From the NCBI GenBank assembly GCA_017509485.1, contig JAFWPP010000032.1, positions 55,961 through 119,960 on the forward strand: 64,000 nt of DNA, in the 5' to 3' direction. Source of the DNA: Oscillospiraceae bacterium. GTDB lineage: Bacteria; Bacillota; Clostridia; Oscillospirales; Oscillospiraceae. The stretch's first letter is position 1. Every line of letters begins with the position of its first letter. The position numbers and the translations under genes are program-made. Below, piece by piece: positions 7,661-64,000 of the stretch. Under the pieces are notes generated by a model. That model was not told where the DNA came from and made no database searches. It was given only the letters and a program-made list of their open reading frames with translations.

Positions 7661-10600
7661 TTATTCGGCGGGCTGGACGTAGAGCTGGAAAACGTAGTTG
7701 ACGTTGTCCTTCCAACCGTAGGTGGTAAAGCCGTTGTAGTATTCCAATGCTTGGTTCTTGTTGCCTTCCTGATAGGCGGCGTTGGTGCTGCGGACGAAGA
7801 CGGTCTTGGCGTCGGCGTCCTTGACCTGGAGGTACCAGAGGCTGTACTCGTTGGGGCTGTCCTCAAAGCTCATGCTGTTGCCGGTGGCCCCGGTGGTGAG
7901 ATACTTGCCGTTGGCCATCTTCAGATAGAAGTTGGTGCTATCGCCCTCGGGATACTCCACGGTGTAGACCGCCACGCCTGTCGCAGGCTCCAGCATGCCC
8001 TCCACGGGAGTCACGGAGACCTCGCCGACCTTATTTCCGTTCAGCGTGTCGGCCAGAGCCAGGCTCTTATCCGGGAAGTAGATGATGACCCGGTCGTTGG
8101 CAGCCAGCGCGGTGGCGGCGGCGAAGCCGTTGGTGGGGATTTCCTCCAAGCCGTCCAGGGCGGTGCGGAGGGCGTTGAGGGCTTCGGTGACCATACGCTG
8201 ATCCTTGTTGGGATCGGCCATGACGGCCTGGGCGGCGGCCAGGGCCTCGTCCAGCGCAGCCAGGGAGCTCTCCGTGTAGAGGCTGCGGTCAATGGCCTCG
8301 GCCTCGGCGACGGCGGCCTCCAGCTCGGTGGTGTCCAGCTCGTCGGCCCAGATCTCGATCTCGTCTCTGGAGCGGACGCGCAGACGCTTGATGAAGAGGC
8401 TGGGATCGATGTCGTCGCCGATCTGGCCGTCGGCGCCGCCGCTGGCCTCGTCCACGTCACGGGAGCCGATGCCCACGCCCTCGATGTTCATGCCCACGGC
8501 AATGCCGTCCAGGGCATGGGATTCCTTCTGGATATAGCCGTTGATGAAGAGCATGGCCTCCTCGCCGGAGCCGTCGTCCACGTAGATCATATCCACCACG
8601 CCGGCGGTCTCATGGAAGTCCGTGATCTTGCCGGTGATCTTCATCAGAATGCCGATGTTGTCGTCGCTCATGGCCTCGGCGCAGGTTACGGCCTTGGGTT
8701 CGATGACGGTCAGGTCGTTGGAGATGACCTTGATGGAGCCGTTGTAGTCGGTGGACAGGTTCAGCTCGATCTCGCCGCAGTAGTAGGTCACGCCGCCGTG
8801 GGCGCGGACCTTCATGCCGATGCTGTAGTATCCGGAGACGGGGAAGGCGTTGATGCCCCGGGTCTCGTCCTGGATGTAGATGCAGTCGAAGAAGGCGGTG
8901 TCCTTGTCGTAGTCGGAGGCGTTGGAGGTGACCCAGCCCTCGATGGTGAACTCCTGGCCGACCTCGCCTTTGTGGACGTCAGCGATCGGGGTGATCTCAC
9001 CGTCGAATTCGCCGTCCTTGATGAAGTCCAGGATGTTGCAGACCAGCAGGTAGTTCTCGTACTGCTGGTTGGCGGGATCGCCGTACTTCAGGTCGTAGTT
9101 GGAGATGAAGGTGGCGCCGGAGCAGACCAGCCAGCCGCCGCCGGAAAGCTTCTCGGCTGTGGCCAGTGCAAAGTCGCTGCCCATTTCAGCCATGACCAGG
9201 TCCTTCTCATAGTCGGGCACATAGGAGGAGCCGTCGAAGTTGGCCTTGTAGTTGGCAACCCAGGTGGTGGGATAGGGAGCGATCAGGGTGGTGACAGCGG
9301 TATCGGCCTTGGGCAGCTCGATCTCGGCGTTCTGCACGAACTTCTTCAGGATCACGGCGACCTGGCCGCGGGTGGCAGTGCCCTTGGGCTGGAGCATGGC
9401 GACGCCGTCCACCTTATTGCCGCTGATGAGGCCGTTGGCCACAGCCCAGCTCAGGGGCTTCTTCGCCCAGCCGCTGGCGGTGCCGGCGTCGGGGAAGCCG
9501 GACAGATCCGCTTGAGCACTGATATCCATGCCCTGGAGCTCAGCATACTTGTAAAGGAAGCTGGCCAGCTCCTGCCGGGTAACGTTGCCCTTGCGATCAA
9601 ATTTACCCTCGGCCTTGCCGCTGGTGATGCCGTTCTCAAAGGCCCAGAGGATGGCCTTGTAGGAATAATTGCCTGGCTTCACATCGTTGAAGGGATTCTC
9701 GATGGTGGGCGCGGGCTTGCCGGCCACCTGCCAAAGGATCGTGACAAACATCTCCCGGGTCAGCTTCGCGTTGGGTCCGAACTTGTCCGCGCCGGTGCCA
9801 GACATCAGGCCGTGCTCCAGCACGAAGTCCACGGCGCTGTGATACCAGCTGGTCCGCTTGACGTCGGTGAAGCGGGCGCAGGGATCCCAGGTGATGCCGG
9901 TGCCGTTGTACCACTGGTAGCGGCCGTTGGAGGAGGGAACGATGCCCTCGGTGAAGAGGTGGTCGCCCACCAGCTCCCGGCCGTCAAAGTAGACGCGGTA
10001 GGCCTCGTTGGCCTTCTTGTCGTTGTCCACCACGATGCCGCGGACGAAGCGGGTCTGGGCGCCGATGGCCTCGTTGACCATGTTGGAGAGGTTGGCGGAG
10101 GAGTAGTAATTCTCATAGGGGGCGTCCGCGGGATCGTCCGGGTCGTAGCGGTCGGACTTGGAGAAGCTCAGGATGGTACCGCCGTTGGCCGCGTAATCGG
10201 CCAGGGCCTCCAGCTCCTCGGCGGTCCAGACGGAAGGCAGGCCGTCGCCCTTGACTCTGGGCACGGTGATCAGGACGGCCTTGAAGCGGGCCAGGTTTTC
10301 CTTGGTCATCTCGCCCTTGTCGATGTACTTGCAGAGGATGCCGCGCTGGGCGCAAATGTCGATGAAGTTGCCCTCGTTGCCGGCGTAGTCGCCGGAGACG
10401 TAGAAGTTGTCGTGGCCCTTGTCCAGGCCGATGTAGGTCATCATCTCGGGGGGGTAGGAGGTCTCGGAGATGGTCTTGACATACACCAGCTCCTTGCCCT
10501 TGAAGATCACGTTAAAGGTGACGGTGATCTCGTAGGTCTTCACGGCGGCGGGATCGGTGGCAGAGGGGGTGAAGGGGACCGCAACGGTCTTCACGGTTCC

Positions 10601-13600
10601 GGCCGCCACGGTCTCGGTGAGGCCGGTCCTCTCCTCCAGCACGCGGCCCTCGGCCTCGACCTTGTAGCCAGTGAGGGTCAGGGGCTCGGACTCGGAGCCG
10701 TTGGTCAGCTTGGCGGTGACGGTCTCCTCCTCGCCCTGGGCGGCCACGGCCACGGAGGTCTCCAGGTCGGCGGCCACGGGAACAGCCTCCTTGACCCAGA
10801 CGGGCGCGGTGACGGCGATATCCTTGTCCGCCTCCACAACGCGGATGTAATAGAAGCCCTCGGTATTGGGGATCTCGATCTCCTGCTCAAAGTCGTTGGC
10901 GTCGACTTCGATCTTCTTTACGGACTTGCCGCCCTCGCCGATGATCTCCACGGTGGCGATCTTGTCTGCGCGGTCAGGATCGGAGACATTGACCTTCACG
11001 GTAACCGTCTCGGGCTGATCTTCCTCCTCAATGGGAGCAATGTCGCCCAGCTTGTAGGTCTCGCCGTTGGCCGTCAGCTCATAATGGATCTGGAGGTTCT
11101 GATCCTCGGTGGAGTAGACGCGGCGGGCATCCAGGGCCCGGTAGAGGCCGATCTCGGAGAAGTCGTCGGTCAGGATGACGTCACGGCAGGTGTTGGAGTC
11201 GCCCCAGTTGCCCTTGTGGTTGTCCTGGTTGTTGGTGGGGGCCACGTGCCAGCCCATGGACAGGCAGAGATCGTACTCCTCGTAGGAGGGGAAGTAGGCG
11301 GAGCCGCCCACCTTGCCCTCGCCGTTGCCGACCTCGATCAGGTTCAGCACGTCGTCGCGCTGGGCGGTATAGCCGGCGTAGTTGTCGAAGTTGCCGAAGG
11401 TCTTGCCGGGGTGGTTGAACTGGGAGACCACGGGAACGGAATTGCCGGCCTCGTCGAAGGGGATATACTTGGTGGCGTTGACGCCGGTGACCTCCGCGCC
11501 GCCGCGGGTGGTCTTGGCCTCCTCGCCCTTGTTGTCCAGACCGTGCTCGGCGTTGACCATCAGGTCGTTGTAGCGATGCATGCCCGCGTAGCCGGTCTTG
11601 TTGTTGAGCTCGGCGTTGTTTCTGGAGACCACGCCGTAGGTGTTGAAGGAGTTGGTGTGGCCGGGACCGCCGGACCAGGTCATCTCGTAGCCGTAGACGC
11701 AGAGGAAGTCGTCATAGAGCTCGTTGTATTCCTTGGCGGTGGCCCGGGCCTCCTCCCACTTGGTGGTGGAGCCGGCGGAGTTCTTCAGCAGGGAGCTCAG
11801 ATCGTAGTAGCTGGAGGTGGTGGCGGTGGAGGTGGTATCGAAGTAGTTGGAGTGGTCGGTGATGATGATGAAGTCCAGATCGTCCACGCCCTGGGCGTGC
11901 TCGTAGGCGTCCTCCAGGGTGCCGACGCCGTCGGAGTACTCGGCGGTGTGGGCATGGATCTGACCGAAGTACAGGGTCTCGCCGCCCTCGCCCACAAAGA
12001 AGTTCCAGCTCTTGTTGACGGACTTGCCGTCGGCCCGGGTGATGGTGACGGAGACGGTCTGCTTTCCGTCGGCCAGGTCCGCCGTCGGGGTGTAGGAGTA
12101 TTTGTCGCCCTCCACGGCGCCGGTGACCGCCTCGCCGTTCAGCAGCATCTGGAAGCTGGGGTTCTGCTTGACGTTGGCGAAGGTGACGCCGATCTCAGGC
12201 CTCTTCTCCTCGCCGGTGGCGGAGTTGGCCGCGGGGAAGGCAGTGAGGATCAGGGGCTCGTCCCGGACCGGGAAGGTCTTGATGACGTGCATGGTCTTGC
12301 CCAGGGCGTCCGTGATGCCGATCTCGATGGCAACGGCCTTGCCGTTTTCCAGGTCGGCGGCGGGGATGGTGAAGCTACCCTTGCGGCCGACAAGCTCCGG
12401 CTCGACCTGCTTCGGCGTCTGCGCCGTGTCGTTCTGGTCGGTGACCATGTACTGGGCGAAGATCTCCACGGGATCGCTGACGTCGTGGATCTCAAACTCC
12501 ACCGGGCAGTCGGAGCCAATGGCGGGATCCGGGTCCTTCAGCTCAAGCGTGGGATTCACCACGTAGCCGACGCCGTCCTTGTCCTCCATGGGGATGAAGT
12601 TCATGGCGAAGAGCTCAACGCTGTCCGCCTTGAAGGTCCAGCCGCTGAACACGTCGTTGAAGAACTCAATGCTGCAGTAATAGTTTCCGTATTTGGCGGC
12701 CTTGTTCTTGATCTCATAGCCGCCCGCACGCTCGACCAGCGTCCAGCAGGCGTAGCCCTGCTTTTCCTCGTCCTCGGGCCAGTCGATCATGAGCAGGGTC
12801 TCGTCGTTGTTGACCTTGCCGTTCTCGTCCACGGTGTTCTCCGGCATGGCCAGATACTTGCCGTTGTTCTCAAAGTTGAAGATGGGGTTCTTTTCGGTGC
12901 CGGACTTGTGGACCGTGAAGATCATGCCGCCGTCGGCAACGTCGTAATAGTTGAGGCCGCCGTCGGAATTGAGGGTCGCAGGAGCCGCCAGCAGGGCGGG
13001 CGCCGCCACATCCTCGCCGGTGGGCTGGCCGAAGACCGCCCGGGCGTTGTGATTGTAGATCACATAGGTCTGGCCGTCCACAGGCAGGCTGCCGGCATCC
13101 ATGATCTCGCCCACCCGGCCGTCCTCGTCGGCCGTTGTGGAGAACACCTTGAAGCGGAAGGCGCTGGCGGAGTTGGTGTTGTAGCCCCAGGGCTTGACCG
13201 CGCCGCGATAGACCTCGAGATAGACAGCCTTTCCGTTGTAGGTGTACTCGGCGTTCTTGAGGTTGTACCAGCCGGCCTCGGTTCTGTCCGCCTCAAAGGT
13301 CCACTTGGCACCGCTCTCGGCGGTGTCGGACAGAATCAGCTGCTCCATGTTCTGGTCGTCAAGATCCTTGATCGTCAGATACTTGCCGCCGAGGGTCAGA
13401 TAGTAGTCGCTGTCGCTGAGCTTGAGGAACTTGAAGACAGCGGCGCCATTGGGCAAAGCGTTGATTTTGTCTCCGGACGCGTTCAGGGTCGCAGCTTTGG
13501 CAGGAGCGCTGCCGTCGCTGACATCGGCGCCGACAACGTATCCGTCGATGTTGAACAGCACGCCGTAGGACTGATCCTCCGGCAGACCGTTCACAACGTC

Positions 13601-13705
13601 GGCGCTCTCCCCTTCTTCCGTGGCAAAGCCCAGGACCGGGAACACGGACAGGACCATGACCAGGGCCAGGAACAGGGCAAGCGCTTTGCTGAGATGTTTC
13701 TTCAT
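7661..13705 (-). CDS. Giant secreted multidomain surface protein (PHP/CehA-like metallophosphoesterase, internal SLH triplet, OB-fold-like and FIVAR-like regions)
   Basis: 2014-aa ORF preceded by AAGGAGG and a signal peptide MKKHLSKALALFLALVMVLSVFPVLGFA. PHP-type motif YFGQIHAHTAEYSDG...IIITDHSNY...NHPG at ~11190-11975. Three SLH repeats at ~9331-9873 (FTDVKRTSWYHSAVDF..., FNDVKPGNYSYKAILWA..., FPDAGTASGWAKKPLSWA...). OB-like segment at ~8760-9000. Confidence 0.9.
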   Translation of the reverse strand: MKKHLSKALALFLALVMVLSVFPVLGFATEEGESADVVNGLPEDQSYGVLFNIDGYVVGADVSDGSAPAKAATLNASGDKINALPNGAAVFKFLKLSDSDYYLTLGGKYLTIKDLDDQNMEQLILSDTAESGAKWTFEADRTEAGWYNLKNAEYTYNGKAVYLEVYRGAVKPWGYNTNSASAFRFKVFSTTADEDGRVGEIMDAGSLPVDGQTYVIYNHNARAVFGQPTGEDVAAPALLAAPATLNSDGGLNYYDVADGGMIFTVHKSGTEKNPIFNFENNGKYLAMPENTVDENGKVNNDETLLMIDWPEDEEKQGYACWTLVERAGGYEIKNKAAKYGNYYCSIEFFNDVFSGWTFKADSVELFAMNFIPMEDKDGVGYVVNPTLELKDPDPAIGSDCPVEFEIHDVSDPVEIFAQYMVTDQNDTAQTPKQVEPELVGRKGSFTIPAADLENGKAVAIEIGITDALGKTMHVIKTFPVRDEPLILTAFPAANSATGEEKRPEIGVTFANVKQNPSFQMLLNGEAVTGAVEGDKYSYTPTADLADGKQTVSVTITRADGKSVNKSWNFFVGEGGETLYFGQIHAHTAEYSDGVGTLEDAYEHAQGVDDLDFIIITDHSNYFDTTSTATTSSYYDLSSLLKNSAGSTTKWEEARATAKEYNELYDDFLCVYGYEMTWSGGPGHTNSFNTYGVVSRNNAELNNKTGYAGMHRYNDLMVNAEHGLDNKGEEAKTTRGGAEVTGVNATKYIPFDEAGNSVPVVSQFNHPGKTFGNFDNYAGYTAQRDDVLNLIEVGNGEGKVGGSAYFPSYEEYDLCLSMGWHVAPTNNQDNHKGNWGDSNTCRDVILTDDFSEIGLYRALDARRVYSTEDQNLQIHYELTANGETYKLGDIAPIEEEDQPETVTVKVNVSDPDRADKIATVEIIGEGGKSVKKIEVDANDFEQEIEIPNTEGFYYIRVVEADKDIAVTAPVWVKEAVPVAADLETSVAVAAQGEEETVTAKLTNGSESEPLTLTGYKVEAEGRVLEERTGLTETVAAGTVKTVAVPFTPSATDPAAVKTYEITVTFNVIFKGKELVYVKTISETSYPPEMMTYIGLDKGHDNFYVSGDYAGNEGNFIDICAQRGILCKYIDKGEMTKENLARFKAVLITVPRVKGDGLPSVWTAEELEALADYAANGGTILSFSKSDRYDPDDPADAPYENYYSSANLSNMVNEAIGAQTRFVRGIVVDNDKKANEAYRVYFDGRELVGDHLFTEGIVPSSNGRYQWYNGTGITWDPCARFTDVKRTSWYHSAVDFVLEHGLMSGTGADKFGPNAKLTREMFVTILWQVAGKPAPTIENPFNDVKPGNYSYKAILWAFENGITSGKAEGKFDRKGNVTRQELASFLYKYAELQGMDISAQADLSGFPDAGTASGWAKKPLSWAVANGLISGNKVDGVAMLQPKGTATRGQVAVILKKFVQNAEIELPKADTAVTTLIAPYPTTWVANYKANFDGSSYVPDYEKDLVMAEMGSDFALATAEKLSGGGWLVCSGATFISNYDLKYGDPANQQYENYLLVCNILDFIKDGEFDGEITPIADVHKGEVGQEFTIEGWVTSNASDYDKDTAFFDCIYIQDETRGINAFPVSGYYSIGMKVRAHGGVTYYCGEIELNLSTDYNGSIKVISNDLTVIEPKAVTCAEAMSDDNIGILMKITGKITDFHETAGVVDMIYVDDGSGEEAMLFINGYIQKESHALDGIAVGMNIEGVGIGSRDVDEASGGADGQIGDDIDPSLFIKRLRVRSRDEIEIWADELDTTELEAAVAEAEAIDRSLYTESSLAALDEALAAAQAVMADPNKDQRMVTEALNALRTALDGLEEIPTNGFAAATALAANDRVIIYFPDKSLALADTLNGNKVGEVSVTPVEGMLEPATGVAVYTVEYPEGDSTNFYLKMANGKYLTTGATGNSMSFEDSPNEYSLWYLQVKDADAKTVFVRSTNAAYQEGNKNQALEYYNGFTTYGWKDNVNYVFQLYVQPAE

Positions 13706-25146: not shown

Positions 25147-28100
25147 TCAAACGGAACCGGGGTCATCCTCCTCTTCCCGCAGCAGCTGCTCCAGCCGCTC
25201 CAGATGCTTGAGGGCGTCGAAGCTGGAGCCGCGGCCTTCCTCGCCGGCGCGGGAGAGGGTGGTGGGGTCGAAGACCCCCGTGGTGGTCAGCGGCTCCCGG
25301 GCGGCGGTCTCCCCGACCGGCTCCGGCCGGGGCGCGGACTCCCGGAGCGTCTGCTCCGGCGGCCGGACGGGCTCCGGGACAGGCGGCCGGTCAGGCGCCT
25401 CTCCCTGCTGGGCGGCGGACTTGCCCGTATCCCAGGATTGGGTCAGATCCATCCGGGGCATGGTGGTGAAGGCGTCCGGGGGCGGCATGGGCTCGGCGGC
25501 GGGCGGCGCATCCGGATCCGGCTCGTCGACGCCCCGGCGGGGATCCGCCAGCTTCACGGGGAGCTTGACGATGGGGGGCCGGGAGAAGCGGGTCAGCAGA
25601 GCCACGATCAGGAAGGCCAGAAAGCCCGCCAGGGAAATCACGCTGATTTTCAGCCCCAGGGCAAAGCCCGGAGCTTCATAGTCCAGGGCGATGGCGTGCA
25701 GGCCAGGCTCCAGATGGACGGCGATCATGGCGTCGCCCAGGGGGGTGATCCGGCGGGCCTCCCCGTCCACGGTGAGTCTCCAGCCCTCGTCGGCGGGAAT
25801 GGAGAGGTAGAGCAGGCTTGGCTCATGGACGCGGACGGCGCCCTCCACGTGGGTGTCGGTGACCTCGGTGGGGATCATGGAGCCCTCGCTCAGCTGCCCA
25901 TAGGCCTGATCGAAGAGACCGGTGCGGAAGAGGGCGGCGCCCAGGGTGACGCTGCCGGTGGTGTCGCTCTTTTTGGCGCGGTAGCGCAGGCTGATCTTGT
26001 CTCCCACGGAAAAGGCGCCCATGCAGCGGTTGTAGCCGTAGCTGTCGGACCAGGTGTACTGCCGCTCCCCGTTGAGGAAGAAGGTCACGTCGCTGGTTCC
26101 GGAGCCCTTGGAATACACGCAGAGGGTCCCGTCGGCGGGCATGACGAAGCTGGCCTCCACATAGTTGTCGTCGTTGCAGACACCCTTGACCTGGAAGCCG
26201 GTGGAGCTCTTGCCGCTGAGCTCCGCGGTGCCCACGGCCTTTACGTCGGAGATTTTTACGTTGCTGTAGAGGGGCTCTTCGATGCCGGTCATCTCCCGGA
26301 ACAGGCGGTTGAGCCGGTCAAAGGGAATGCCGGAATTCTGGGACGCGTCGTATTCCAGCGCGTTGTCGTTCACCAGGAAGCCCAGGCTCAGATAGGCCTT
26401 GTTCTCCAGCAGCAGCACCTCGCCCTTCCGGGCCACCTGGCGGAAGTAGAGGGTGTCCAGATTCCGCCCGTTGCGGTCGATCAGATATTTGACGCCCAGC
26501 AGCAGATTGGTGAAGGGATCCGCCTCCTGGTAGACGTAGCGATTGCCCGCCACGGAGGCCGCCATGCCGATGCTCTGCAGGAAGGCGGAGACCCGGCTGT
26601 TGGCGGCGGAGGAGAAGACGGAAACACCGTTGTAGCCCAGCAGGGTCCCGTCGTTGAGGGTCTGCTTCATGGCCACCTCGGCCCGCCAGAGATCCACAGT
26701 CTCGCTCTCCCGCTGCTGCATGATCTCCACGATCTCCTTGCTGTTCTCCTTTTTGGTGGGATAGTAGGAGGAGTCGGTGAAGCCGATCTTATTGACGCCC
26801 AGGGCCATACAGCCCAGGGACTCGCAGAGCATGCAGAAGCAGAGGCTCAGCACCAGCAGCTCCTTACGGATGACGCGGAAGGCGTAGAGCAGCAGCACCG
26901 CCAGCGCCAGCAGCGCAACGGCGGTGGTCGTCAGAACCACCAGCTTTTCCCCGGAATGGATGACGCAGTAGAGCAGCAGCGTGACGGGAACGATCAGCGC
27001 CAAGGCCCGCCATTTGGGCAGATGATCCAGCTCCGTATAGGCCCGGAATGCCATAAAGATCACCGTAAAGGACCAGAGGAAGCTGAAGCGGTAGGGCAGC
27101 ATATTGGGGAAGTGCAGGCCGTGCCAGAGATAATCGAGGGTACGGAAGAGAAAGCTGTTGGCAAAGAACAGCAGCAACAGCACAGTAAAGATCCGCTCCC
27201 GCCGGGGTATGCGCTTACAGAACAGATAGCAGGTCGCCAGGATCAGGGTAAAAAAGCCGCAGAAGATGTTGGGCAGGCCCTCCATGGTGGTGGGCTTGGT
27301 CAGGGTCCCGGCGTTGGAAAGCACGTCCCGGATGCCCTGCAGCGGGACGCGGAAGGAGGAGAAGAAGGCGCCGACGTAGCCCAGACGGAGGCTCAGCAGG
27401 GCCTCATGGGCGCCGATCCAGCTGGGATAGGTCACAGACTCTCCGGTGAATTCCGGCACCTGCTTGCCGAAGAAGGCGTACAGATCCGCCACCTTGCCCT
27501 TGGCGATCAGCTCGATGCCGGCCTGGTGGGTCATCTCCGGGATTTTGACGATGTTCATCGCGTAGGCGTTGGGAAATTTGTTGACGGCGGAGGAGGTGGC
27601 CTGCAGGCCCAGATAGGCGGGAACCGTCAAAAACGCCGTCATCCCCAGCGCCACCAGCGTAAAGACGGCAATCCGCCAGAAGCGGGTCCAGAGCCCCGCC
27701 AGATCATCCCAGTTGACGACGTGCCAGCCGAGGAACAGCAGCAGCACGAAAATACAGACAAACAGGCCGATGTAATAGCTGCAGTAAACCGACATCGCCA
27801 GGCTCACCACATAGAGCACATAGCGGCGTTCCCGCATCAGCTCAAAGGTCCCCAGCGTCACCAGGGGCAGCAGAGCCACGGTGTCCAGCCAGATGGCGTT
27901 CCAGTAGTAGCCCATCAAAAAGGCGCAGAAGGCGTAGGCCGTGGAAAACACCGCCACAGCAAGCTCCTCCCGCCCGAAGGTCTTCCGCAGGAAGTGGGCG
28001 CAAAACAGCCCCGCCAGGCCCAGTCGAACCAAAACCATCAGATTGTACCAGGGCATCACAAGGCCCTCCGGCAGCAGGACCGCCGGGAGGTTCAGCGGGC

Positions 28101-28428
28101 TCGCCAGATAGTATGCAAAGAGGGAAAGGTAATTGGTCCCCATGCCCGTGGTCCAGGAGTGGAGCAGGGAGTTTCCGTTCTGCAGCCTGGTCCGCAGATC
28201 CAGATAAAAGGGATAATACTGGTGCCACTGGTCGTGGGCCAGGATCATCCTGCTGCCGAAGGGGATGACGCCGCAGCAGGCCCAGACCACGCCCATGATC
28301 AGCAGCGGCAGGAAAAAGGCGGTCAAATACAAATAGCGGGCCTTCCGCGGGCGGGAGAGAAAACCGCCCGCGGCATAGAATCCCCTCAGGGATTTCCGGG
28401 CCGCAGATTGGATCGTCATATCGGTCAC
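25147..28428 (-). CDS. YfhO family membrane glycosyltransferase-like protein with a Pro-rich C-terminal tail
   Basis: 1093-aa polytopic ORF. The N-terminal region (ILAHDQWHQYYPFYLDLRTRLQNGNSLLHSWTTGMGTNYLSLFAYYLASPLN) is YfhO-like. It lies 18 nt downstream of the GH2 gene. Confidence 0.85.
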   Translation of the reverse strand: MTDMTIQSAARKSLRGFYAAGGFLSRPRKARYLYLTAFFLPLLIMGVVWACCGVIPFGSRMILAHDQWHQYYPFYLDLRTRLQNGNSLLHSWTTGMGTNYLSLFAYYLASPLNLPAVLLPEGLVMPWYNLMVLVRLGLAGLFCAHFLRKTFGREELAVAVFSTAYAFCAFLMGYYWNAIWLDTVALLPLVTLGTFELMRERRYVLYVVSLAMSVYCSYYIGLFVCIFVLLLFLGWHVVNWDDLAGLWTRFWRIAVFTLVALGMTAFLTVPAYLGLQATSSAVNKFPNAYAMNIVKIPEMTHQAGIELIAKGKVADLYAFFGKQVPEFTGESVTYPSWIGAHEALLSLRLGYVGAFFSSFRVPLQGIRDVLSNAGTLTKPTTMEGLPNIFCGFFTLILATCYLFCKRIPRRERIFTVLLLLFFANSFLFRTLDYLWHGLHFPNMLPYRFSFLWSFTVIFMAFRAYTELDHLPKWRALALIVPVTLLLYCVIHSGEKLVVLTTTAVALLALAVLLLYAFRVIRKELLVLSLCFCMLCESLGCMALGVNKIGFTDSSYYPTKKENSKEIVEIMQQRESETVDLWRAEVAMKQTLNDGTLLGYNGVSVFSSAANSRVSAFLQSIGMAASVAGNRYVYQEADPFTNLLLGVKYLIDRNGRNLDTLYFRQVARKGEVLLLENKAYLSLGFLVNDNALEYDASQNSGIPFDRLNRLFREMTGIEEPLYSNVKISDVKAVGTAELSGKSSTGFQVKGVCNDDNYVEASFVMPADGTLCVYSKGSGTSDVTFFLNGERQYTWSDSYGYNRCMGAFSVGDKISLRYRAKKSDTTGSVTLGAALFRTGLFDQAYGQLSEGSMIPTEVTDTHVEGAVRVHEPSLLYLSIPADEGWRLTVDGEARRITPLGDAMIAVHLEPGLHAIALDYEAPGFALGLKISVISLAGFLAFLIVALLTRFSRPPIVKLPVKLADPRRGVDEPDPDAPPAAEPMPPPDAFTTMPRMDLTQSWDTGKSAAQQGEAPDRPPVPEPVRPPEQTLRESAPRPEPVGETAAREPLTTTGVFDPTTLSRAGEEGRGSSFDALKHLERLEQLLREEEDDPGSV

Positions 28429-57497: not shown

Positions 57498-57725
57498 TCA
57501 GAACACATGGAAAAACAGGCAGCCGACCAGGGCCAGAATCCCGAGCACGACCACGGCTGGGAGAAAAATGGTGAGGAAGGAGGCCAGGAGCATGGCAAAG
57601 GCGTCGCCCTTTTCGAGCTCGATCCGCTCCTCCTTCTCCCGGACGTCGGCGCCTAAATCCTCATCCAGCCCGGCTTTGTAGCGCTGGGTCCTCCGGGCAC
57701 GATTCAATTTTTCTTGTAAGAGCAT
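57498..57725 (-). CDS. Small hypothetical membrane protein (75 aa)
   Basis: Strong AAGGAGGAGG upstream. It has a charged N-terminal half and one C-terminal TM helix. Confidence 0.55.
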   Translation of the reverse strand: MLLQEKLNRARRTQRYKAGLDEDLGADVREKEERIELEKGDAFAMLLASFLTIFLPAVVVLGILALVGCLFFHVF

Positions 57726-57807
57726 GGGCTTCCTCCTCCTTTGATCGAATGCAGTCCGGCGGCCGCCGAAGCGGCCGCCGGTGTTTTCGCCTGTGAGCGC
57801 GGTGGAA

Positions 57808-59340
57808 TCAGGTCTCGGGCTTTGCCTTGATATCGAGACCGTTCATCAGCTTATGGTGGCAAGCTACAAAGTGGTCGGGGCCAACCTCTTCCCAGTCGGG
57901 AACGACCTGCTCGCAGATCTCGGTGCAATACTTGCAGCGGGTGTGGAACTTGCAGCCCTTGGGCGGATTCACCGGGCTGGGAATATCGCCTTCGAGGATC
58001 TGAAGGTTCTTGTCGCAGTCGGGATCCGTGGTGGGGATGGCGGCAATCAGAGCCTGGGTGTAGGGGTGGACCGGGTTCTTGAAGATCTCAGCGGAATCCG
58101 CCAGCTCCACCATGTTGCCCAGGTACATGACGCCGATCCGGTCGGAGATGTACTTGACGACGGACAGGTCGTGGGTGATGAAGAGGTAGGTCAGGTCCTG
58201 CTTCTCCCGCAGATCCTGCAGGAGGTTGATGATCTGGGACTGAATGGACACGTCCAGAGCGGAAACCGCCTCGTCGCAGACCACGAACTTGGGCTCCACC
58301 GCCAGGGCACGAGCGATACTGATTCTCTGCCGCTGGCCGCCGGAGAACTGATGGGGGAAGCGATGCAGGAAATAGGGGGCCAGACCGCAATCGTCCATGA
58401 CCTTCAGAATGTAATCCTGCATTCTGGCGTTGTTCTTGCGGTAGATGCTGTGGGCCCGAAGACCCTCGCCGATGATCTGGCCGATGGTCATACGGGGGTT
58501 CAGCGAGGAGTAGGGATCCTGGAAGACAATCTGCAGATCCTGACGGAGCAGACGAATCTCGTTGTAGGTCAGGCGAGCCAGATCGATGCCGTCGTCCCGG
58601 AGCTCGTCGAACTTCTGGAAGTCCGGATCATTCGCGTGGGCCTGACGGAGCTCTTCGATCTGCTTTTCCGCCACGTCCAGCTCTTCGTCCAGCTTTTTCA
58701 GTTCTTCATCGATCTCGTTCAGCTTGCTGCGGAAACCGTCGGTGTTCTTCTTGGCGTATTCGGCGTCGTCGAAGCGAACCTGGATGTCCTTCCGCTTTTC
58801 GCGAAGCTTTCTGCGCTTCAGGGCGATCTGATACTTCTTTTCATAAGCCTGGGTAACGGGACCGTAGTCCTTGGCCACCATCAGGCCGCCGATGATGTTG
58901 CCCACATCCAGCAGCGCGTCGTTGGCGGCCTTCTCGGCGGCGACCATCTCCGCGTGCTTGGCGTACTGCTCCTTCTCGGACAGGGACTCATAATGGGCCT
59001 TGACCTCGTCGCGCTTCTTTTCCAGCGTCTTCAGCTGCTCGGTCTTCTTGTGCAGATTGCGGATGGTCTTCAGCATATAGTGAGGTGCCAGATCATCCAG
59101 AGTCTTGCCGTAATACATGGAGCGGCCGTCGGTCTGACGGTAGATCTGCAGCAGGGTACGGCCCAGGGTGGACTTGCCGCAGCCGGACTCGCCCACGAGA
59201 CCGAAGACCTCGCCCTCGTAGATGTTCAGGGTAATGCCATCGTTGGCCTTGACATAGAGGCCGCGCTTCTTCAGCGGGAAGTACTGCTTGAGGTTGGTGA
59301 TCCGAAGCAGAACTTTCTTTTCCTGTTTATCTTGTTGCAT
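57808..59340 (-). CDS. oppF: Oligopeptide/dipeptide ABC transporter ATP-binding protein (OppF-like) with a ~170-aa coiled-coil insertion
   Basis: Walker A GESGCGKST, FQDPYSSLNPR, signature FSGGQRQR, Walker B FVVCDEAVSALD and a C-terminal Opp-type Cys motif. Start at ATG 59340. It overlaps oppD by 14 nt. Confidence 0.9.
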   Translation of the reverse strand: MQQDKQEKKVLLRITNLKQYFPLKKRGLYVKANDGITLNIYEGEVFGLVGESGCGKSTLGRTLLQIYRQTDGRSMYYGKTLDDLAPHYMLKTIRNLHKKTEQLKTLEKKRDEVKAHYESLSEKEQYAKHAEMVAAEKAANDALLDVGNIIGGLMVAKDYGPVTQAYEKKYQIALKRRKLREKRKDIQVRFDDAEYAKKNTDGFRSKLNEIDEELKKLDEELDVAEKQIEELRQAHANDPDFQKFDELRDDGIDLARLTYNEIRLLRQDLQIVFQDPYSSLNPRMTIGQIIGEGLRAHSIYRKNNARMQDYILKVMDDCGLAPYFLHRFPHQFSGGQRQRISIARALAVEPKFVVCDEAVSALDVSIQSQIINLLQDLREKQDLTYLFITHDLSVVKYISDRIGVMYLGNMVELADSAEIFKNPVHPYTQALIAAIPTTDPDCDKNLQILEGDIPSPVNPPKGCKFHTRCKYCTEICEQVVPDWEEVGPDHFVACHHKLMNGLDIKAKPET

Positions 59341-60319
59341 GGCGTTCCCTCCTGTCAGGATAGAAGCATCTGATCTGCTGCTGATCGTTGACCTGCACAA
59401 GCTTGGGTTCCTCTTCGAGGCAGCGCTCTGTGCAGTACTTGCAGCGAGGTGCAAACTTGCAGCCCTTGGGCAGATTCAGAGGATGGGGGACTGCGCCGGG
59501 GATGGACTCCAGACGCTCGTTGGTGTCGGCATCCAGACGGGGAATGGACCGCAGCAGACCTTCCGTATAGGGGTGCATAAAGTCCGCGCCAGCGAAAATG
59601 TGGCGGACCGGAGACATTTCCACGATCTGGCCGCAGTACATGACGGCCACGTCGTCGGCCATCTGGTTGATAACGCCCAGGTCATGGGTGATGAACAGAA
59701 TGGAAGTGCCGTGCTCCTTCTTCAGATCATTCATCAGGTGCAGGATCTGCGCCTGAATGGTGACGTCCAGAGCCGTGGTGGGCTCGTCCGCGATCAACAG
59801 CTTGGGCTTGCAGGCCAGGGCCATGGCGATCATGACACGCTGGCGCATACCGCCGGAGAGCTGGTGAGGATACTGCTTGGCCACGACCTCGGGATTCGGG
59901 ATCTTGACGTCGGCCAGCATCTCCACGACCTTCTCGGCCGCTTCCTTTTTGGAAAGGCCCTGGTGGATGATGAAGGGCTCGGAGACCTGCTTTTCCACCG
60001 AGAAGACCGGGTTCAGAGAGGTCATGGGCTCCTGGAAAATGACGGAGATCGCGTTGCCGCGGATCTTGTACATCTCATGCAGAGGCAGATCCACAAGCTC
60101 TCTGCCGTCGAATATCACGGAGCCGCTTTCGATGTAGCCGTTGCCATCCAGCAGATGGAGGATGGACATGGCGGAAACGCTCTTGCCGGAGCCGGACTCG
60201 CCGACCAGGCCCAGCGTCTTGCCCGCTTCTACAGAATAGGAAACGTCATTGACCGCCTTCACGATACCGCGCTTGGTGGTAAAGTAGGTGTGTAGATTTT
60301 TGACTTCAAGAAGTGCCAT
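59327..60319 (-). CDS. oppD: Oligopeptide/dipeptide ABC transporter ATP-binding protein (OppD-like)
   Basis: Walker A GESGSGKS, signature LSGGMRQR, Walker [13 protein letters not shown] and a C-terminal Opp-type extension. Confidence 0.92.
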
Positions 60320-60331
60320 CTTTTACCTCCT

Positions 60332-62161
60332 TTAGCGTCCAATGGATTTCGGATCGACGGCGTCACGAATGGCATCGCCAATCAGGTTGATGCAGATTGT
60401 GCAGATGCCGAAGATCGTAGCGGGGAAGACCCAACGCCACCAATACTGCTGAATGACGATCGAGTTGTTGGCGCCGGTGAGCATATTGCCCCAGGTCGGC
60501 GTCGGGGGAGAGATACCGAAGCCCAGGTAGGACAGAGAGGACTCGGTAAGCATGCAGGTCGCGAAGCTCAGGGTCGCCTCGACGAGCAGGATCGACAGCA
60601 CGTTGGGAAGGATGTGCCTGAAGATGATCGAGCCCTCGCGTACGCCCATGGCCTGGGCCGCAATGACAAACTCCTTCTCACGTTCGGCCAGGATCTGTGC
60701 ACGGACCAGGCGGCAAATGCCGGTCCAGCTCAAAACACCCAAGACGATCATGATCAGGTACATTCGCAGCTCCACGCTGATTCGTGTGCCGATGATGGCT
60801 GACAACAGTAAGGCGAAGGGCAGGAATGGCAAGCTGCCGATGACCTCGGAGATACGCATGACCACCATATCGACCTTGCCGCCAAAGTAGCCGGCCAGGC
60901 CGCCCATGATGACGCCGATGACCAGAGAGATCACGACTGCCACGGCGCCGACGGTCATGGTGACCTTACCGCCGTTGACAATACGGGTCAGGACGTCGCG
61001 GCCCTTGTCGTCGGTGCCCAGCAGGTGACCCTTCAGGCCCCAGGTGTGGACCTTGCCGCCCTTGTCCACGGCGTAGTTCTGATAGAAGCCCGCATAGACG
61101 GTTTCAATGTCCGCGTTATGCACATCGGAGGCAACGGAGGCCTGGCCGTGGCTGTCGTCGCCCCAGCTGAATACGTCGCCGTTCTCCATCAGCGCGGTGT
61201 AGTGGAAGCGGCCGCCGTAGAGCTCCACAGGCTTGCTCTCACTCTGGGGAACATCGGCTTCGCCGTGATAGGCGTTGCCCCAGACGATGATCTTGCCGTT
61301 GTGGTCGATGGCCGCCATGGTCTCGCCGCTGGCCGCGATATCAACGGTGTCGGCGGAGAGGGCCGCGGGAATCTTTGCAAAGGGGTTGTCCTTGCTCTTG
61401 CCGGCGTAGACGACGGAACCGTCGTCCATCAGCAGAACGTAGTTGTAGGTGGCGATGGCGATCTTCTTGATGTGACCCTGAAGCTCCTTGGACTTCATGA
61501 TCTTCAGATCCGCCATGTTGCCGTTGCCCCAGAAATATGCCTTGCCTTCATCGGTAACGACGCCGGAGAACTGGTTGCCGGCCTCGATCTGAATGATATG
61601 GGGCTTGTTTTTGCCCTTCAGCTCGGTCGGGATCCGGTCCTGGCCCAGACGGGTGTTGCCCCAGACGTAGATGTTGTTGTCCTCGTCCAGCGCGACGATG
61701 TGGTCATAGCCGGCAGCCAGGTCCACGATCTTGGCGTTCAGGACCTCCTCCGGGATATTGCGCAGGTCGATGGTGTCGGTGATCTTGGTGTAGCCCCACA
61801 TGTAGACCTTGCCGTTCTTGTCGCAACCGACGCCGAAGGTGGGGCCTGCGGCGATGGCCTGGATGTTGCCGTCCAGGGCGCTGGGAACTTTCAGCATGGA
61901 CTGGGAGGGAGGTACGTTCTGCTGGGTGCCGTCGGTATCGCCCAAATCAATGGGGAGGATCATGGGACCAACAACGACAAAGATCAGGATCAGCAGGAAG
62001 ATGATCAGACCGGTCATGCCGAGCTTGTTGTGAAGGAAGTTGTTGAGCATCATCTTGCCGGGGCTCTGGATCTGCTCTTCCTTCATCAGGTCCTCGACCG
62101 TCTTGTTGCGGTTGCCGAAGAGGCGACCGAAAAGGGAAGGTTTCTTTTGCTTCTTAGCCAT
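60332..62161 (-). CDS. OppC/DppC-type ABC permease with a seven-repeat RCC1-like domain in the first external loop
   Basis: TM1 GLIIFLLILIFVVVGPMILP, then seven blades ending KVYMWG, NIYVWG, KAYFWG, SVVYAG, KIIVWG, DVFSWG and KVHTWG. The canonical core follows from LGTDDKGRDVLTRIVNGGKVTMTVG to the C-terminus. Start at ATG 62161 after AGGAGGG. Confidence 0.9.
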   Translation of the reverse strand: MAKKQKKPSLFGRLFGNRNKTVEDLMKEEQIQSPGKMMLNNFLHNKLGMTGLIIFLLILIFVVVGPMILPIDLGDTDGTQQNVPPSQSMLKVPSALDGNIQAIAAGPTFGVGCDKNGKVYMWGYTKITDTIDLRNIPEEVLNAKIVDLAAGYDHIVALDEDNNIYVWGNTRLGQDRIPTELKGKNKPHIIQIEAGNQFSGVVTDEGKAYFWGNGNMADLKIMKSKELQGHIKKIAIATYNYVLLMDDGSVVYAGKSKDNPFAKIPAALSADTVDIAASGETMAAIDHNGKIIVWGNAYHGEADVPQSESKPVELYGGRFHYTALMENGDVFSWGDDSHGQASVASDVHNADIETVYAGFYQNYAVDKGGKVHTWGLKGHLLGTDDKGRDVLTRIVNGGKVTMTVGAVAVVISLVIGVIMGGLAGYFGGKVDMVVMRISEVIGSLPFLPFALLLSAIIGTRISVELRMYLIMIVLGVLSWTGICRLVRAQILAEREKEFVIAAQAMGVREGSIIFRHILPNVLSILLVEATLSFATCMLTESSLSYLGFGISPPTPTWGNMLTGANNSIVIQQYWWRWVFPATIFGICTICINLIGDAIRDAVDPKSIGR

Positions 62162-62177
62162 TTTCACTCGCCCTCCT

Positions 62178-63203
62178 TTACTTGTTGATCCGGACACGCG
62201 GGTCGACCAGGCCGTAGCTCAGGTCGATGATCAGCATGCCCACAAGGCTGACGACCGTGTAGAACATCTGGATCGAAAGCGCCAGGTCAAAGTCATGGTT
62301 GTTCAGGGCGCTGATATAGAGCTTGCCCATGCCGTTGAGGTTGAAGGTATTCTCTATAATCACGGAGCCGCTGAAGATGCTCAGGAACCAGCCGATGATC
62401 AAGGTGATCACGGGCAGCAGGGCGTTGCGCCAGGCGTGGGAGTAAATGACGACCTTCTCCTTGACGCCCTTGGCACGGGCCGTCTTGATGTGGTCCATGC
62501 TCAGCGCGTCGACCATAGAGGCTCGGACGTAACGGGTCATGCCGCCCAGAGATGCGAAGGTCATAACGATCAGGGGCAGGCAAAAATAGTAAAGCGTGTC
62601 CGTGAACTTCCGGAATCCCGTGTAATTGGCGCCGGGAGTCCCCATGCCGCCCACCGGGAAGATCCGCAGCAGCACAGCGAAAATGTAGATGAAGACCAGG
62701 GCGACGATGTAGATCGGGATACTATAGCCCACGATGGTAAAGACCTGGGTGAAGTTATCCAGCTTTTTACCCTTATGGACAGCGCAGTATATTCCAAGTG
62801 GTATGGTGATGCCGAGGGCGAGGATGGTGGCGAATATGTTGATCAATACCGTATTCCCCATCGGCGCGCCGACGACTTCTATAACGGGTTTTTTGTAGAA
62901 GGAAGAATTGCCGAAGTTACCCTCCAGCAAGCCGCTGATTTTTCCAGTCTGTTTTTGTTTCGCCAGGCCCATCCATCGGGCATAGCGGACAATAATGCTG
63001 TCGTCCAGACCCATTTCTTCACGCAGCTCTTGATACATACGCTGATATACCTCAGGCTTCAGCGATTTCTTCTGGGCTTCCAGCTGGTTACGCGCGGGGT
63101 CGCTGGGAACCAGGTTGTAAAGAGCGTACATCAGGAATGAGACGACAAAGAAGACGACGACCATGTAGACTAATCTTTTTAAAATGTACTTTCCCACTGT
63201 CAT
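62178..63203 (-). CDS. oppB: OppB/DppB-type ABC permease
   Basis: 341 aa with typical OppB N-terminus (YILKRLVYMVVVFFVVSFLMY) and an EAA-loop region. The start may be the GTG at 63197, because the ATG at 63203 abuts GGAGGG. Confidence 0.9.
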   Translation of the reverse strand: MTVGKYILKRLVYMVVVFFVVSFLMYALYNLVPSDPARNQLEAQKKSLKPEVYQRMYQELREEMGLDDSIIVRYARWMGLAKQKQTGKISGLLEGNFGNSSFYKKPVIEVVGAPMGNTVLINIFATILALGITIPLGIYCAVHKGKKLDNFTQVFTIVGYSIPIYIVALVFIYIFAVLLRIFPVGGMGTPGANYTGFRKFTDTLYYFCLPLIVMTFASLGGMTRYVRASMVDALSMDHIKTARAKGVKEKVVIYSHAWRNALLPVITLIIGWFLSIFSGSVIIENTFNLNGMGKLYISALNNHDFDLALSIQMFYTVVSLVGMLIIDLSYGLVDPRVRINK

Positions 63204-63511: not shown

Positions 63512-64000
63512 TCACTCAATGGTGGCGTAAACAACAGCCTGCTGGAAGTCCCACAGAGCGTTGCACTCGAGGTTGTGGATCTTGGCAGCCATTACATCGT
63601 AGTAGATGTTGGAGTACAGGGGAACCTCGGGGAGGTAATCGTTCCACTCGTCGATGAAGTCGACCCACAGCTTCAGGTACTGCTCGGAGTCGCCGGCTTC
63701 CACGCCGTAGACCATGTTCATGGACAGGTCGTCGAGCTCCTTGCTGTTGGTGAAGTTGCTGTTGTAGCCCATCTCGTAGTACTTGGTGCCGGGCAGGCAG
63801 TAGTTGAAGGACATGTCGTAGGCAGCGGTGAAGTTGGTGGCCAGGTTGTACATGCCGTAGGTCTTGACGCCGTACTGCTCGCCGACGGAGGAGTCACGGT
63901 ACATGTAGTTCAGCAGGTCGTCGAAGGACATGATGTTCTGGTTGATCTGCATACCAGCCTTGGCAGTCTGCTCGCCGTTGGCCAGCATAACAGCCAGCAG
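63512..64000 (-). CDS. ABC transporter substrate-binding protein, family 5 (OppA-like), C-terminal part (5' end outside window)
   Basis: Frame is open to the window edge. Sequence has SBP-5 C-terminal character (YNLATNFTAAYDMSFNY..., LPEVPLYSNIYYDV). It is the first gene of the opp-like operon. Confidence 0.8.
   Translation of the reverse strand: MLAVMLANGEQTAKAGMQINQNIMSFDDLLNYMYRDSSVGEQYGVKTYGMYNLATNFTAAYDMSFNYCLPGTKYYEMGYNSNFTNSKELDDLSMNMVYGVEAGDSEQYLKLWVDFIDEWNDYLPEVPLYSNIYYDVMAAKIHNLECNALWDFQQAVVYATIE

Follow-up and report, generated by a model that had tools for sequence, protein, structure and literature searches.

The stretch of DNA that was analysed (64,000 nucleotides, hereafter the window) carries on its minus strand a five-gene operon that encodes an Opp/Dpp-type (PepT-family) ABC importer, very probably one for peptides, in a rumen/gut Oscillospiraceae bacterium. 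The gene for the substrate-binding lipoprotein (SBP_bac_5 family) comes first; its 3′ end occupies 63512..64000 and it runs off the window end, the full gene (663 aa) lying directly upstream of OppB on the same contig. The protein has a lipobox (LAMFAGC) followed by a Pro/Thr-rich linker of ~45 aa, its mature part comprises residues about 67-663, and its closest PDB relative is an OppA (9p48_A, 3e-28); every substrate-binding protein (SBP) inspected across the family is a lipoprotein with a low-complexity linker. The OppB-type permease, a 341-aa ORF at 62178..63203, contains BPD_transp_1_N and BPD_transp_1 domains, and its best NCBIfam match is Opp4B (244 bits, under the cut-off of that profile). 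Downstream of the OppC gene, the OppD ATPase (59327..60319) is of ordinary length (330 aa), combines ABC_tran with oligo_HPY, and scores 397 bits against the OppD subfamily profile. Its translation contains a C-terminal Cys motif, C-X5-C-X6-C-X17-C, the spacing of which matches the [4Fe-4S] ligands of E. coli DppD (PMC12136057). The last gene specifies a long OppF ATPase of 510 aa (57808..59340). No riboswitch or leader was found upstream of or within the operon (Rfam, E<=0.01). The window also encodes a 2014-aa SLH/FIVAR wall-associated protein.

The OppC-type permease gene, assigned by domain, profile and fold matches, occupies 60332..62161 and encodes 609 aa plus a stop codon; this product and the seven repeat motifs quoted for it in an earlier sequence-only reading are all present. 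The ATG at 62161 is separated by a 10-nt spacer from the ribosome-binding site AAGGAGG (62172..62178, read from the sequence), which overlaps the OppB stop codon TAA. The protein begins with a cytoplasmic N-terminal tail (residues 1-48; 62018..62161) that contains 10 K/R in 48 residues and carries a family-specific motif, RLFGNRN...EEQIQSPG, conserved across 57 operons. It is followed by TM1 at residues about 49-71 (61949..62017; hydropathy peak 3.1, AF2 helix 46-68) and by an insert of 291 residues (85-375; 61037..61909), located between TM1 and the conserved LGTD motif preceding TM2, which RCC1_2, AF2 and Foldseek identify as a seven-bladed RCC1/BLIP-II-like beta-propeller and which is extracytoplasmic by predicted topology. 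The last blade leads into TM2 through a tight, highly conserved junction, LKGHLLGTDDKGRD (residues 376-389; 60995..61036), in which L376, G378, G382, D384, G387, R388, and D389 are invariant and which includes the ordinary OppC LGTD motif. The alignment with E. coli OppC starts at this junction, residue 377 corresponding to E. coli residue 80. The remainder (residues 390-609; 60335..60994) forms the OppC core, comprising TM2-TM6 with the EAA coupling loop. The earlier reading had placed the propeller at 60977-61909; the 61909 end stands, but 60977 (residue 395) also takes in the junction and the start of TM2, and the boundary should be 61037 (residue 375).

Opp/Dpp importers are textbook systems that function in nutrition, peptide signalling, and cell-wall recycling and serve as entry routes for peptide antibiotics, and their architecture is treated as settled in recent cryo-EM work. 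The gene product described here is an OppC-type ABC permease of this PepT family. OppC_N (PF12911) matches residues 33-85 over the full model (1-53) with 43.9 bits against a cut-off of 23.9, beginning only at residue 33 of the 609-aa protein; BPD_transp_1 (PF00528) matches residues 416-605 with 100.5 bits, and the core retrieves E. coli OppC (8z21_B) from the PDB at 1.3e-60. The equivalog level of a named OppC, DppC, NikC or Opp4C is not reached: the best NCBIfam match, Opp4C, gives 318 bits against a cut-off of 350, and scores against all other NCBIfam profiles are far below their cut-offs. The closest permeases are E. coli OppC (8z21_B; 41% identity over the aligned core by Foldseek), DppC (8z1v_B), M. 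tuberculosis OppC (8j5q_C), and S. aureus Opp4C (NF045476). The OppC_N TM1, the LGTD motif, the six-TM BPD_transp_1 core, and the EAA loop are shared with OppC/DppC permeases, and the operon with OppB, two oligo_HPY ATPases, and an SBP_bac_5 protein is shared with Opp/Dpp/Nik importers. Where the propeller-bearing OppC has its 291-residue insert, however, ordinary OppC/DppC proteins have a loop of roughly 20 residues, which accounts for the total of 609 aa versus 278-302 aa; the lengths of ordinary chains and profiles thus agree with the earlier statement that the TM1-TM2 loop is normally short. Ordinary OppC/DppC proteins also lack the extra conserved cytoplasmic N-terminal motif.

With regard to topology, hydropathy and AF2 helices give six TM segments (TM1 and five core TMs), and the insert is acidic (net charge -11), compared with the K/R-rich N-terminal tail. 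In the solved DppB/DppC structure, the TM1-TM2 regions are periplasmic and DppA caps DppB/DppC (PMC12136057). The positive-inside distribution of charges and the homology to solved OppC/DppC support a predicted extracytoplasmic location of the insert, as originally proposed, and rule out a cytoplasmic one.

The insert contains seven repeats, ~24% identical to one another, which end in the motifs KVYMWG (118-123), NIYVWG (163-168), KAYFWG (207-212), SVVYAG (249-254), KIIVWG (290-295), DVFSWG (329-334), and KVHTWG (370-375). In Pfam, RCC1_2 matches it at E=3.8e-32 (109.7 bits, cut-off 22), RCC1 with 23.8 bits (cut-off 21.7), and WD40_RLD at E=5e-40 (138.3 bits, under its 150-bit gathering cut-off), scores that place the repeats far beyond chance. 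The AF2 model (pLDDT about 90 over residues 90-380) is seven-bladed, DSSP counting three strands in every blade, and the top Foldseek match is BLIP-II (E=7e-20, TM 0.76-0.79), with UVR8, RCC1, and HERC2 also among the matches. Both the repeat signature and the propeller fold that had been read from the letters are therefore borne out, and the insert is, as modelled, an RCC1 propeller that resembles BLIP-II in having seven blades, each of them three-stranded. AF2 confidence is low in the linkers at residues 72-81 and 381-390, so that the model does not fix the orientation of the propeller relative to the transporter.

Among characterized proteins, BLIP-II of Streptomyces exfoliatus (1jtd_B, 3qhy_B) is the best match in both sequence (2.6e-19) and fold (TMt 0.79). 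Its seven blades have three strands apiece (PMC6121496) and, as in the OppC propeller, are short (about 40-45 aa), and BLIP-II too is an extracytoplasmic bacterial protein. It is, however, free and secreted and binds class A beta-lactamases, whereas the present propeller is internal to a permease and only 24-26% identical to it; there is no reason to assume that the latter binds beta-lactamases or PBPs. RCC1, the HERC2 RLDs, UVR8, RPGR, and CRINKLY4 (7a0j) share the RCC1/RCC1_2 repeats and the seven-bladed fold, but the eukaryotic RCC1-like domains have four-stranded blades of 50-60 aa and, unlike the OppC propeller, occur in Ran-GEF, ubiquitin-ligase or photoreceptor contexts. In the CRINKLY4 receptor kinase, the propeller is likewise outside the cell on a membrane protein, although it forms a terminal ectodomain there rather than an insertion between two transporter TM helices. 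A comparable arrangement in a transporter is MalF P2 of E. coli MalFGK2-E, also a large folded extracytoplasmic domain within a type I importer permease subunit. MalF P2 is Ig-like, lies in the TM3-TM4 loop, and belongs to another transporter family, whereas the propeller is in the TM1-TM2 loop, so the likeness would be one of analogy and not homology.

The same architecture is found well beyond this contig. At least 24 contigs, independent of one another and drawn from different samples (GCA_017540945.1 among them), encode the identical 609-aa protein, the identical domain set recurs in 120 of the 120 best homologues, and 197 GTDB species are positive for the propeller-bearing OppC. Carriers belong to Oscillospiraceae, Lachnospiraceae, and Erysipelotrichaceae/Solobacterium. 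Of the 197 positive species, 80 were examined through a representative genome, and every one of these contained the complete operon (SBP, OppB, OppC with propeller, OppD, and long OppF); its layout is unchanged in divergent members at 48% and 41% identity. A search with the propeller alone returned mostly giant multi-propeller proteins and few family representatives and is thus not a measure of family size. The propeller is under purifying selection (dN/dS about 0.3; 68 invariant residues in OppC 85-389), and its mean pairwise identity within the family, 0.60, is close to that of the SBP body (0.645), the OppC core standing at 0.80. An artefactual origin of the fusion, whether through chimeric assembly, a frameshift joining two genes or decay to a pseudogene, was a prior concern for a sequence from a metagenome-like contig and can be dismissed with near certainty, given the intact frame with its ribosome-binding site, the uniform GC content across the insert, a dN/dS well below 1, and the recurrence in independent samples, homologues, and species just described; misassembly, which the sequence-only reading had wished to see excluded, is ruled out on the same grounds. 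The architecture is an old one, conserved by vertical descent and maintained by purifying selection across about 200 species. In the databases, family members are called nothing more than 'ABC transporter permease subunit', and literature searches on RCC1 or other propellers combined with Opp/ABC permeases yielded no description of such an architecture. Its occurrence in about 200 species, together with this lack of a description, makes the propeller-bearing OppC a real, uncharacterised, and apparently undescribed variant of a well-known transporter, in line with the earlier suggestion of an Opp subtype, although the family proved to be large.

A further departure from the ordinary layout lies in the ATPase OppF. 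The best PDB match of the long OppF is E. coli OppF (8z21_D), of which it is an orthologue, and its ABC_tran match is split in two, with oligo_HPY coming after it. AF2 predicts a helical insertion of ~170 residues (about 80-250; 58591..59103), which separates the Q-loop from the strand that follows the Walker A helix, with four long helices at 96-119, 122-155, 160-195, and 201-233 (pLDDT >90). In a PDB fold search with the whole OppF model, all 50 of the matches listed were ABC ATPase chains (215-611 residues). The insertion is conserved in length across the family (175-190 aa) but only 46% identical in sequence. Whether the fusion always co-occurs with the long OppF had been raised as a question at the outset, and it does so in 73 of 73 loci. 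When the OppF insert by itself served as the query, only 23 fragmentary matches were obtained, two of which were checked and lie within propeller operons; as the word-index search is insensitive to low-complexity helical sequence, long OppF proteins without a propeller may exist elsewhere. The Mollicutes OppF profile MMSYN1_0168 is likewise long (649 positions versus about 330 in ordinary ones) and matches the long OppF in three separate stretches with 316 bits, which does not imply homology of the inserts; the OppC profile of Mollicutes, with 307 positions, is no longer than usual and hence lacks a propeller. Altogether, about 200 species of abundant rumen/gut Firmicutes carry three additions on one half of the transporter, namely the propeller, the N-terminal motif, and the ATPase insert.

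Genes for the peptidases M3, M42, TldD/PmbA, and M29 flank the operon in many loci, and such frequent cytoplasmic peptidase neighbours point to peptide import. The assignment of peptides as substrates derives from family membership and neighbouring genes, with an OppA as the best PDB match of the SBP.

The pattern of conservation on the propeller suggests how it may be placed. On the face where the chain exits to TM2, the loops are as conserved as the strands (0.97 bits), whereas the turns on the opposite face contain no invariant non-Gly/Pro residue (1.68 bits). Among the loops of the conserved face are GPT 106-108, GYDH 151-154, Q197, GGRFH 316-320, and QNY 361-363. The conserved face would thus lie next to the transporter and the variable face toward the cell wall, an assignment made from the beta-meander topology rather than from coordinates; conservation of the GxxH-type loops is partly structural, as in all RCC1 repeats. 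The reading that we favour, though tentatively, is that the propeller serves as a fixed docking and retention platform for the cognate lipoprotein SBP. On the outer face of the OppC/OppF half, it would stand beside the site where the SBP caps OppB/OppC, its two faces turned as just described. The propeller would be a permanent platform that docks and retains the SBP, which hangs on a flexible linker of 25-45 residues, and would thereby raise the local concentration of the SBP and orient it for delivery, as MalF P2 does for MalE; substrate capture and ATP-driven translocation would otherwise proceed as in the ordinary Opp cycle. MalF P2 is known to bind MalE throughout the transport cycle (PMC6906923). 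In a mirror-tree analysis of 57 operons, the partial r was 0.56 for propeller and SBP, 0.47 for propeller and OppB, and 0.46 for propeller and OppF insert, values (0.45-0.56) that differ too little, and are too confounded by evolutionary rate, to single out the partner of the propeller. The docking hypothesis leaves the need for the OppF helical insert unexplained. Should the propeller be a landing pad for the SBP, it would represent a second, independently evolved solution to the problem solved by MalF-P2 and would show how monoderm bacteria keep tethered SBPs at the translocator.

Alternatively, the propeller could be a binding module in its own right whose partner is not the cognate SBP, which we consider unlikely, if still worth weighing. 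It might dock a protease or a PBP-fold enzyme, secreted or bound to the wall, at the importer; it might be tethered to a polymer of the cell wall or S-layer; or it might itself capture substrates, whether peptides or proteins. Propellers of the RCC1-like and BLIP-II kinds serve as scaffolds for protein binding, and BLIP-II binds penicillin-recognising enzymes. The closest non-fused relatives are the giant multi-propeller proteins (2000-7000 aa), which we take to be surface proteins, a wall-associated protein (the SLH/FIVAR one) is encoded in the window, and Opp systems elsewhere import cell-wall peptides, the E. coli OppF entry in NCBIfam being named a 'murein tripeptide/oligopeptide' ATPase. 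A conserved external ligand, however, fits poorly with the variability of the face that presumably points away from the transporter, and in the loci examined genes for proteases, PBPs or wall enzymes are not found as conserved neighbours; M3, the recurring peptidase that was checked, has no signal peptide. Moreover, a dedicated SBP is encoded in every operon, so direct substrate capture by the propeller is not needed. Binding of another partner would physically link peptide import to that extracellular partner.

More doubtful still is a reading in which the propeller, the OppC N-terminal motif, and the OppF insert form one trans-membrane axis that regulates transport or signals to a cytoplasmic partner (a gated importer or 'transceptor'). 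In E. coli Dpp, the permease DppC and the ATPase DppF, the counterparts of OppC and OppF, pair with and contact each other (PMC12136057), so that all three additions sit on the half-transporter paired in solved structures, and they always co-occur in the loci examined. In such a device, the propeller would sense or dock a partner (the loaded SBP, a polymer of the wall, or a peptidase or PBP-fold enzyme bound to the wall); OppC, with its conserved N-terminal motif in the cytoplasm, would pass that state on to the OppF insert, which would gate ATPase activity or recruit a cytoplasmic partner. According to work cited in PMC6906923, MalF-P2 has been reported to signal to the MalK dimer whether substrate is available. 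Distances for the OppF insert give a partial r of 0.53 with the OppC N-terminal region, 0.46 with the propeller, and 0.04 with OppB, but these correlations are weak and confounded by evolutionary rate. No regulator or kinase gene is a conserved neighbour among the loci examined, and the poor sequence conservation of the OppF insert (0.46) suits a structural spacer better than a specific signalling surface. We consider it improbable that the OppC/OppF half amounts to such a trans-membrane device instead of one half of a plain importer, and that these operons constitute a new regulated or 'transceptor' class of Opp systems specific to gut/rumen Firmicutes.

Whatever its partner, the propeller is exposed and family-specific and varies on what appears to be its outer face, which makes it a candidate receptor for phages or bacteriocins and a candidate marker for uncultured lineages. 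A cultured carrier of the propeller-bearing OppC is Erysipelotrichaceae bacterium NK3D112.

The right end of the window carries a five-gene operon on the minus strand, which encodes a substrate-binding protein (SBP; SBP_bac_5 in Pfam, 3′ end of the gene at 63512..>64000), OppB (62178..63203), the permease OppC::propeller (60332..62161; ORF reading and Pfam), OppD (59327..60319), and a long OppF (57808..59340). An AAGGAGG site overlapping the OppB stop codon lies 10 nt before the ATG at 62161, so the 609-aa permease described in the sequence-only reading is read correctly, and the seven repeat motifs quoted there all occur at their assigned places. In Pfam, this product matches OppC_N (residues 33-85), RCC1_2 (E=3.8e-32; 109.7 bits against a cut-off of 22), RCC1 (23.8 against 21.7), WD40_RLD (E=5e-40), and BPD_transp_1 (residues 416-605). 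The NCBIfam Opp4C, OppC, DppC, and NikC profiles align only from residue ~377 onward, which corresponds to residue 80 of E. coli OppC (8z21_B); the insert therefore takes the place of a short loop, in keeping with the 278-302 aa of ordinary OppC/DppC proteins and with the short TM1-TM2 loop that had been assumed. The upper end of the propeller, originally placed at 60977-61909, holds, but the lower end reaches past the conserved OppC junction into the first part of TM2; the propeller proper covers residues 85-375 (61037..61909).

An AF2 model built with 50 homologues bears out the RCC1-like fold, with seven blades of three strands each and a pLDDT of ~87-94 over residues 90-380. Its best PDB match is BLIP-II (E=7e-20, TM 0.76-0.79), further best matches being UVR8, RCC1, HERC2, RPGR, and the CRINKLY4 ectodomain, while the core best matches E. 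coli OppC/DppC and M. tuberculosis OppC. BLIP-II has been described as a propeller of seven blades, each three-stranded (PMC6121496), which agrees with the short 39-45-aa repeats of OppC::propeller. The blades are only ~24% identical to one another, indicating an old, differentiated propeller rather than a recent amplification. The 48 N-terminal residues ahead of TM1 (~49-71) contain 10 K/R, the insert has an acidic net charge of -11, and beyond it lie five more TM segments and the EAA loop. Structures of E. coli DppABCDF show DppA as a cap over both permeases, DppB and DppC, whose TM1-TM2 regions lie in the periplasm (PMC12136057). Taken with the charge pattern, this shows by homology that the propeller is extracytoplasmic and adjoins the SBP docking site, as had been proposed.

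Across 57 complete operons, mean pairwise identity is 0.60 for the propeller, 0.645 for the SBP body, 0.72 for OppB, 0.80 for the OppC core, and 0.81 for both OppD and the two OppF nucleotide-binding segments flanking its insert. NG86 dN/dS is ~0.30 in the propeller against 0.13 in the OppC core, both rough values with dS near saturation. Residues 85-389 include 68 invariant positions, among them the junction W374, G375, L376, G378, G382, and D384. The strand 1-2 loops of the blades (GPT, GYDH, GNQ, GRFH, FYQNY) are conserved like the strands (0.97 bits), whereas any invariant residue in the strand 2-3 turns on the opposite face is Gly or Pro (1.68 bits). A beta-meander has its 1-2 loops on the face where the chain exits after strand 3, and here the chain passes from the last WG of the propeller directly into LGTD, the ordinary OppC motif, and TM2. 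Judging from this strand topology, the conserved face would adjoin the transporter and the variable face would be exposed to the wall.

The cognate SBP (complete at L001:6659-8650 in the fetched contig) is a lipoprotein whose mature part begins after a low-complexity, Pro/Thr/Glu-rich linker of 25-45 residues that varies in sequence; past this linker comes an N-terminal segment that is very conserved, IIYGSTTELSGDLGNAWWTNNA. Among solved structures, an OppA is the best relative of the SBP, and the operon likely serves peptide import. Genes for an M3 oligoendopeptidase without signal peptide adjoin the operon in 21 loci, an M42 aminopeptidase in five loci plus L086, TldD/PmbA in five, and M29 in L087 (examples in related genomes: L026:598-2478, L020:10459-11592, L042:1096-2460, L086:10027-11061, and L087:90-1313). 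We tentatively favor, at somewhat short of an even chance, a propeller that would give the tethered SBP a fixed place to land and be retained. The model would be the P2 loop of MalF, an Ig-like domain that stays MalE-bound throughout the cycle and has been called 'unique' among type I importers (PMC6906923), the likeness being a functional analogy only. A rather unlikely alternative is an independent module that would bind something else: an enzyme (peptidase or PBP-fold), a polymer of the wall, or the substrate directly.

The suspected co-occurrence with the long OppF is found in 73/73 loci reaching that gene. Every fetched locus with enough flank keeps the order SBP (~630-690 aa), OppB, OppC::propeller (605-622 aa), OppD, and long OppF, even in members only 48% and 41% identical. 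The OppF insertion of ~170 residues (~80-250; 58591..59103, minus strand) separates the Q-loop from the strand that follows the Walker A helix; four long helices are predicted (pLDDT >90), and its length is conserved with only 46% sequence identity across the family (pairwise mean 0.46). All 50 PDB matches listed for the whole OppF model are ABC ATPase chains, with E. coli OppF the best; a weak SMC_N match results from the insertion layout. Searching with the insertion alone retrieved only fragments of such OppF proteins, and the two traced adjoin OppC::propeller genes. Since DppC touches DppF and DppB touches DppD in E. coli (PMC12136057), the modified OppC and OppF belong to the same transporter half. 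OppC residues 1-32 (62066..62161, minus strand) form a family-specific cytoplasmic extension upstream of the OppC_N region, with a conserved motif (RLFGNRN...EEQIQSPG); the strongest correlation of its evolutionary distances is with the OppF insertion (partial r 0.53), which hints at contact between the two. A trans-membrane regulatory axis joining propeller, OppC N-terminus, and OppF insert is improbable, more so than an independent binding module. The C-termini of OppD (59327..59440) and OppF (57808..57950), both on the minus strand, end with C-X5-C-X6-C-X17-C, the spacing of the [4Fe-4S] ligands in E. coli DppD/DppF, and each protein probably binds an iron-sulfur cluster. Solobacterium MAGs (L009-L012) carry a second, ordinary SBP/OppB pair (~26-28% identical) downstream of the operon, and locus L021 an extra OppD/OppF pair of ordinary length upstream; the propeller system thus coexists with standard Opp systems.

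That the fusion is an artefact has a negligible probability: a misassembly, a fusion by frameshift, or a pseudogene is ruled out by a GC content equal to that of the flanks, by an identical protein with the same neighbors in independent samples (at least 24 contigs, MAG GCA_017540945.1 among the sources), and by its spread, with relatives of the insert in 197 species (one genome per GTDB species, queried with an alignment of the insert). The best 80 of these are rumen/gut Oscillospiraceae/Ruminococcaceae, Lachnospiraceae, and Erysipelotrichaceae/Solobacterium, including the cultured Erysipelotrichaceae bacterium NK3D112 and Firmicutes bacterium CAG:124. OppC_N, RCC1, and BPD_transp_1 co-occur in all of the best 120 database homologues (64-100% identity), which their sources name simply 'ABC transporter permease subunit'. 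OppC::propeller belongs to both the OppC/DppC permeases and the RCC1-repeat propellers. It matches none of the named OppC proteins of NCBIfam as an equivalog, nor is it a BLIP-II, that protein being a free secreted inhibitor. No account of an RCC1 propeller within an Opp permease or any other ABC permease turned up in our literature search; the proposed distinct Opp subtype is upheld as a known kind of transporter in a widespread yet undescribed form. At E<=1e-3, the propeller has 57,763 matches among representative proteins, which makes propellers of the RCC1 type a very common feature of prokaryotic giant proteins. Among the matches listed (P0121-P0270), the closest non-fused relatives are giants of 1,300-7,200 aa, in each of which 5-36 RCC1-like stretches match.

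Approximately 30 nt past the OppF stop codon, a perfect 11-bp all-GC hairpin, CCGGCGGCCGC-CGAA-GCGGCCGCCGG (57756..57781), is likely the operon terminator. Just downstream of OppF lies a small ORF of 75 aa (57500..57730, minus strand; L001:14437-14664), which encodes a TM helix at its C-terminus. Outside close relatives it is kept at a single distant locus (L081, 40%), and it is therefore probably not part of the Opp system. In the window, rimM/trmD/SIR2 and metG flank the operon, with no adjoining peptidase genes. A 2014-aa ORF (7661..13705, minus strand) with SLH and FIVAR domains encodes a large wall-anchored surface protein, indicating SLH-type anchoring to a secondary cell-wall polymer. 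Finally, a 1093-aa glycosyltransferase-like membrane protein of the YfhO family (25147..28428, minus strand) has an equally long shadow ORF on the opposite strand that lacks a Pfam match, as seen elsewhere in this GC-rich window.
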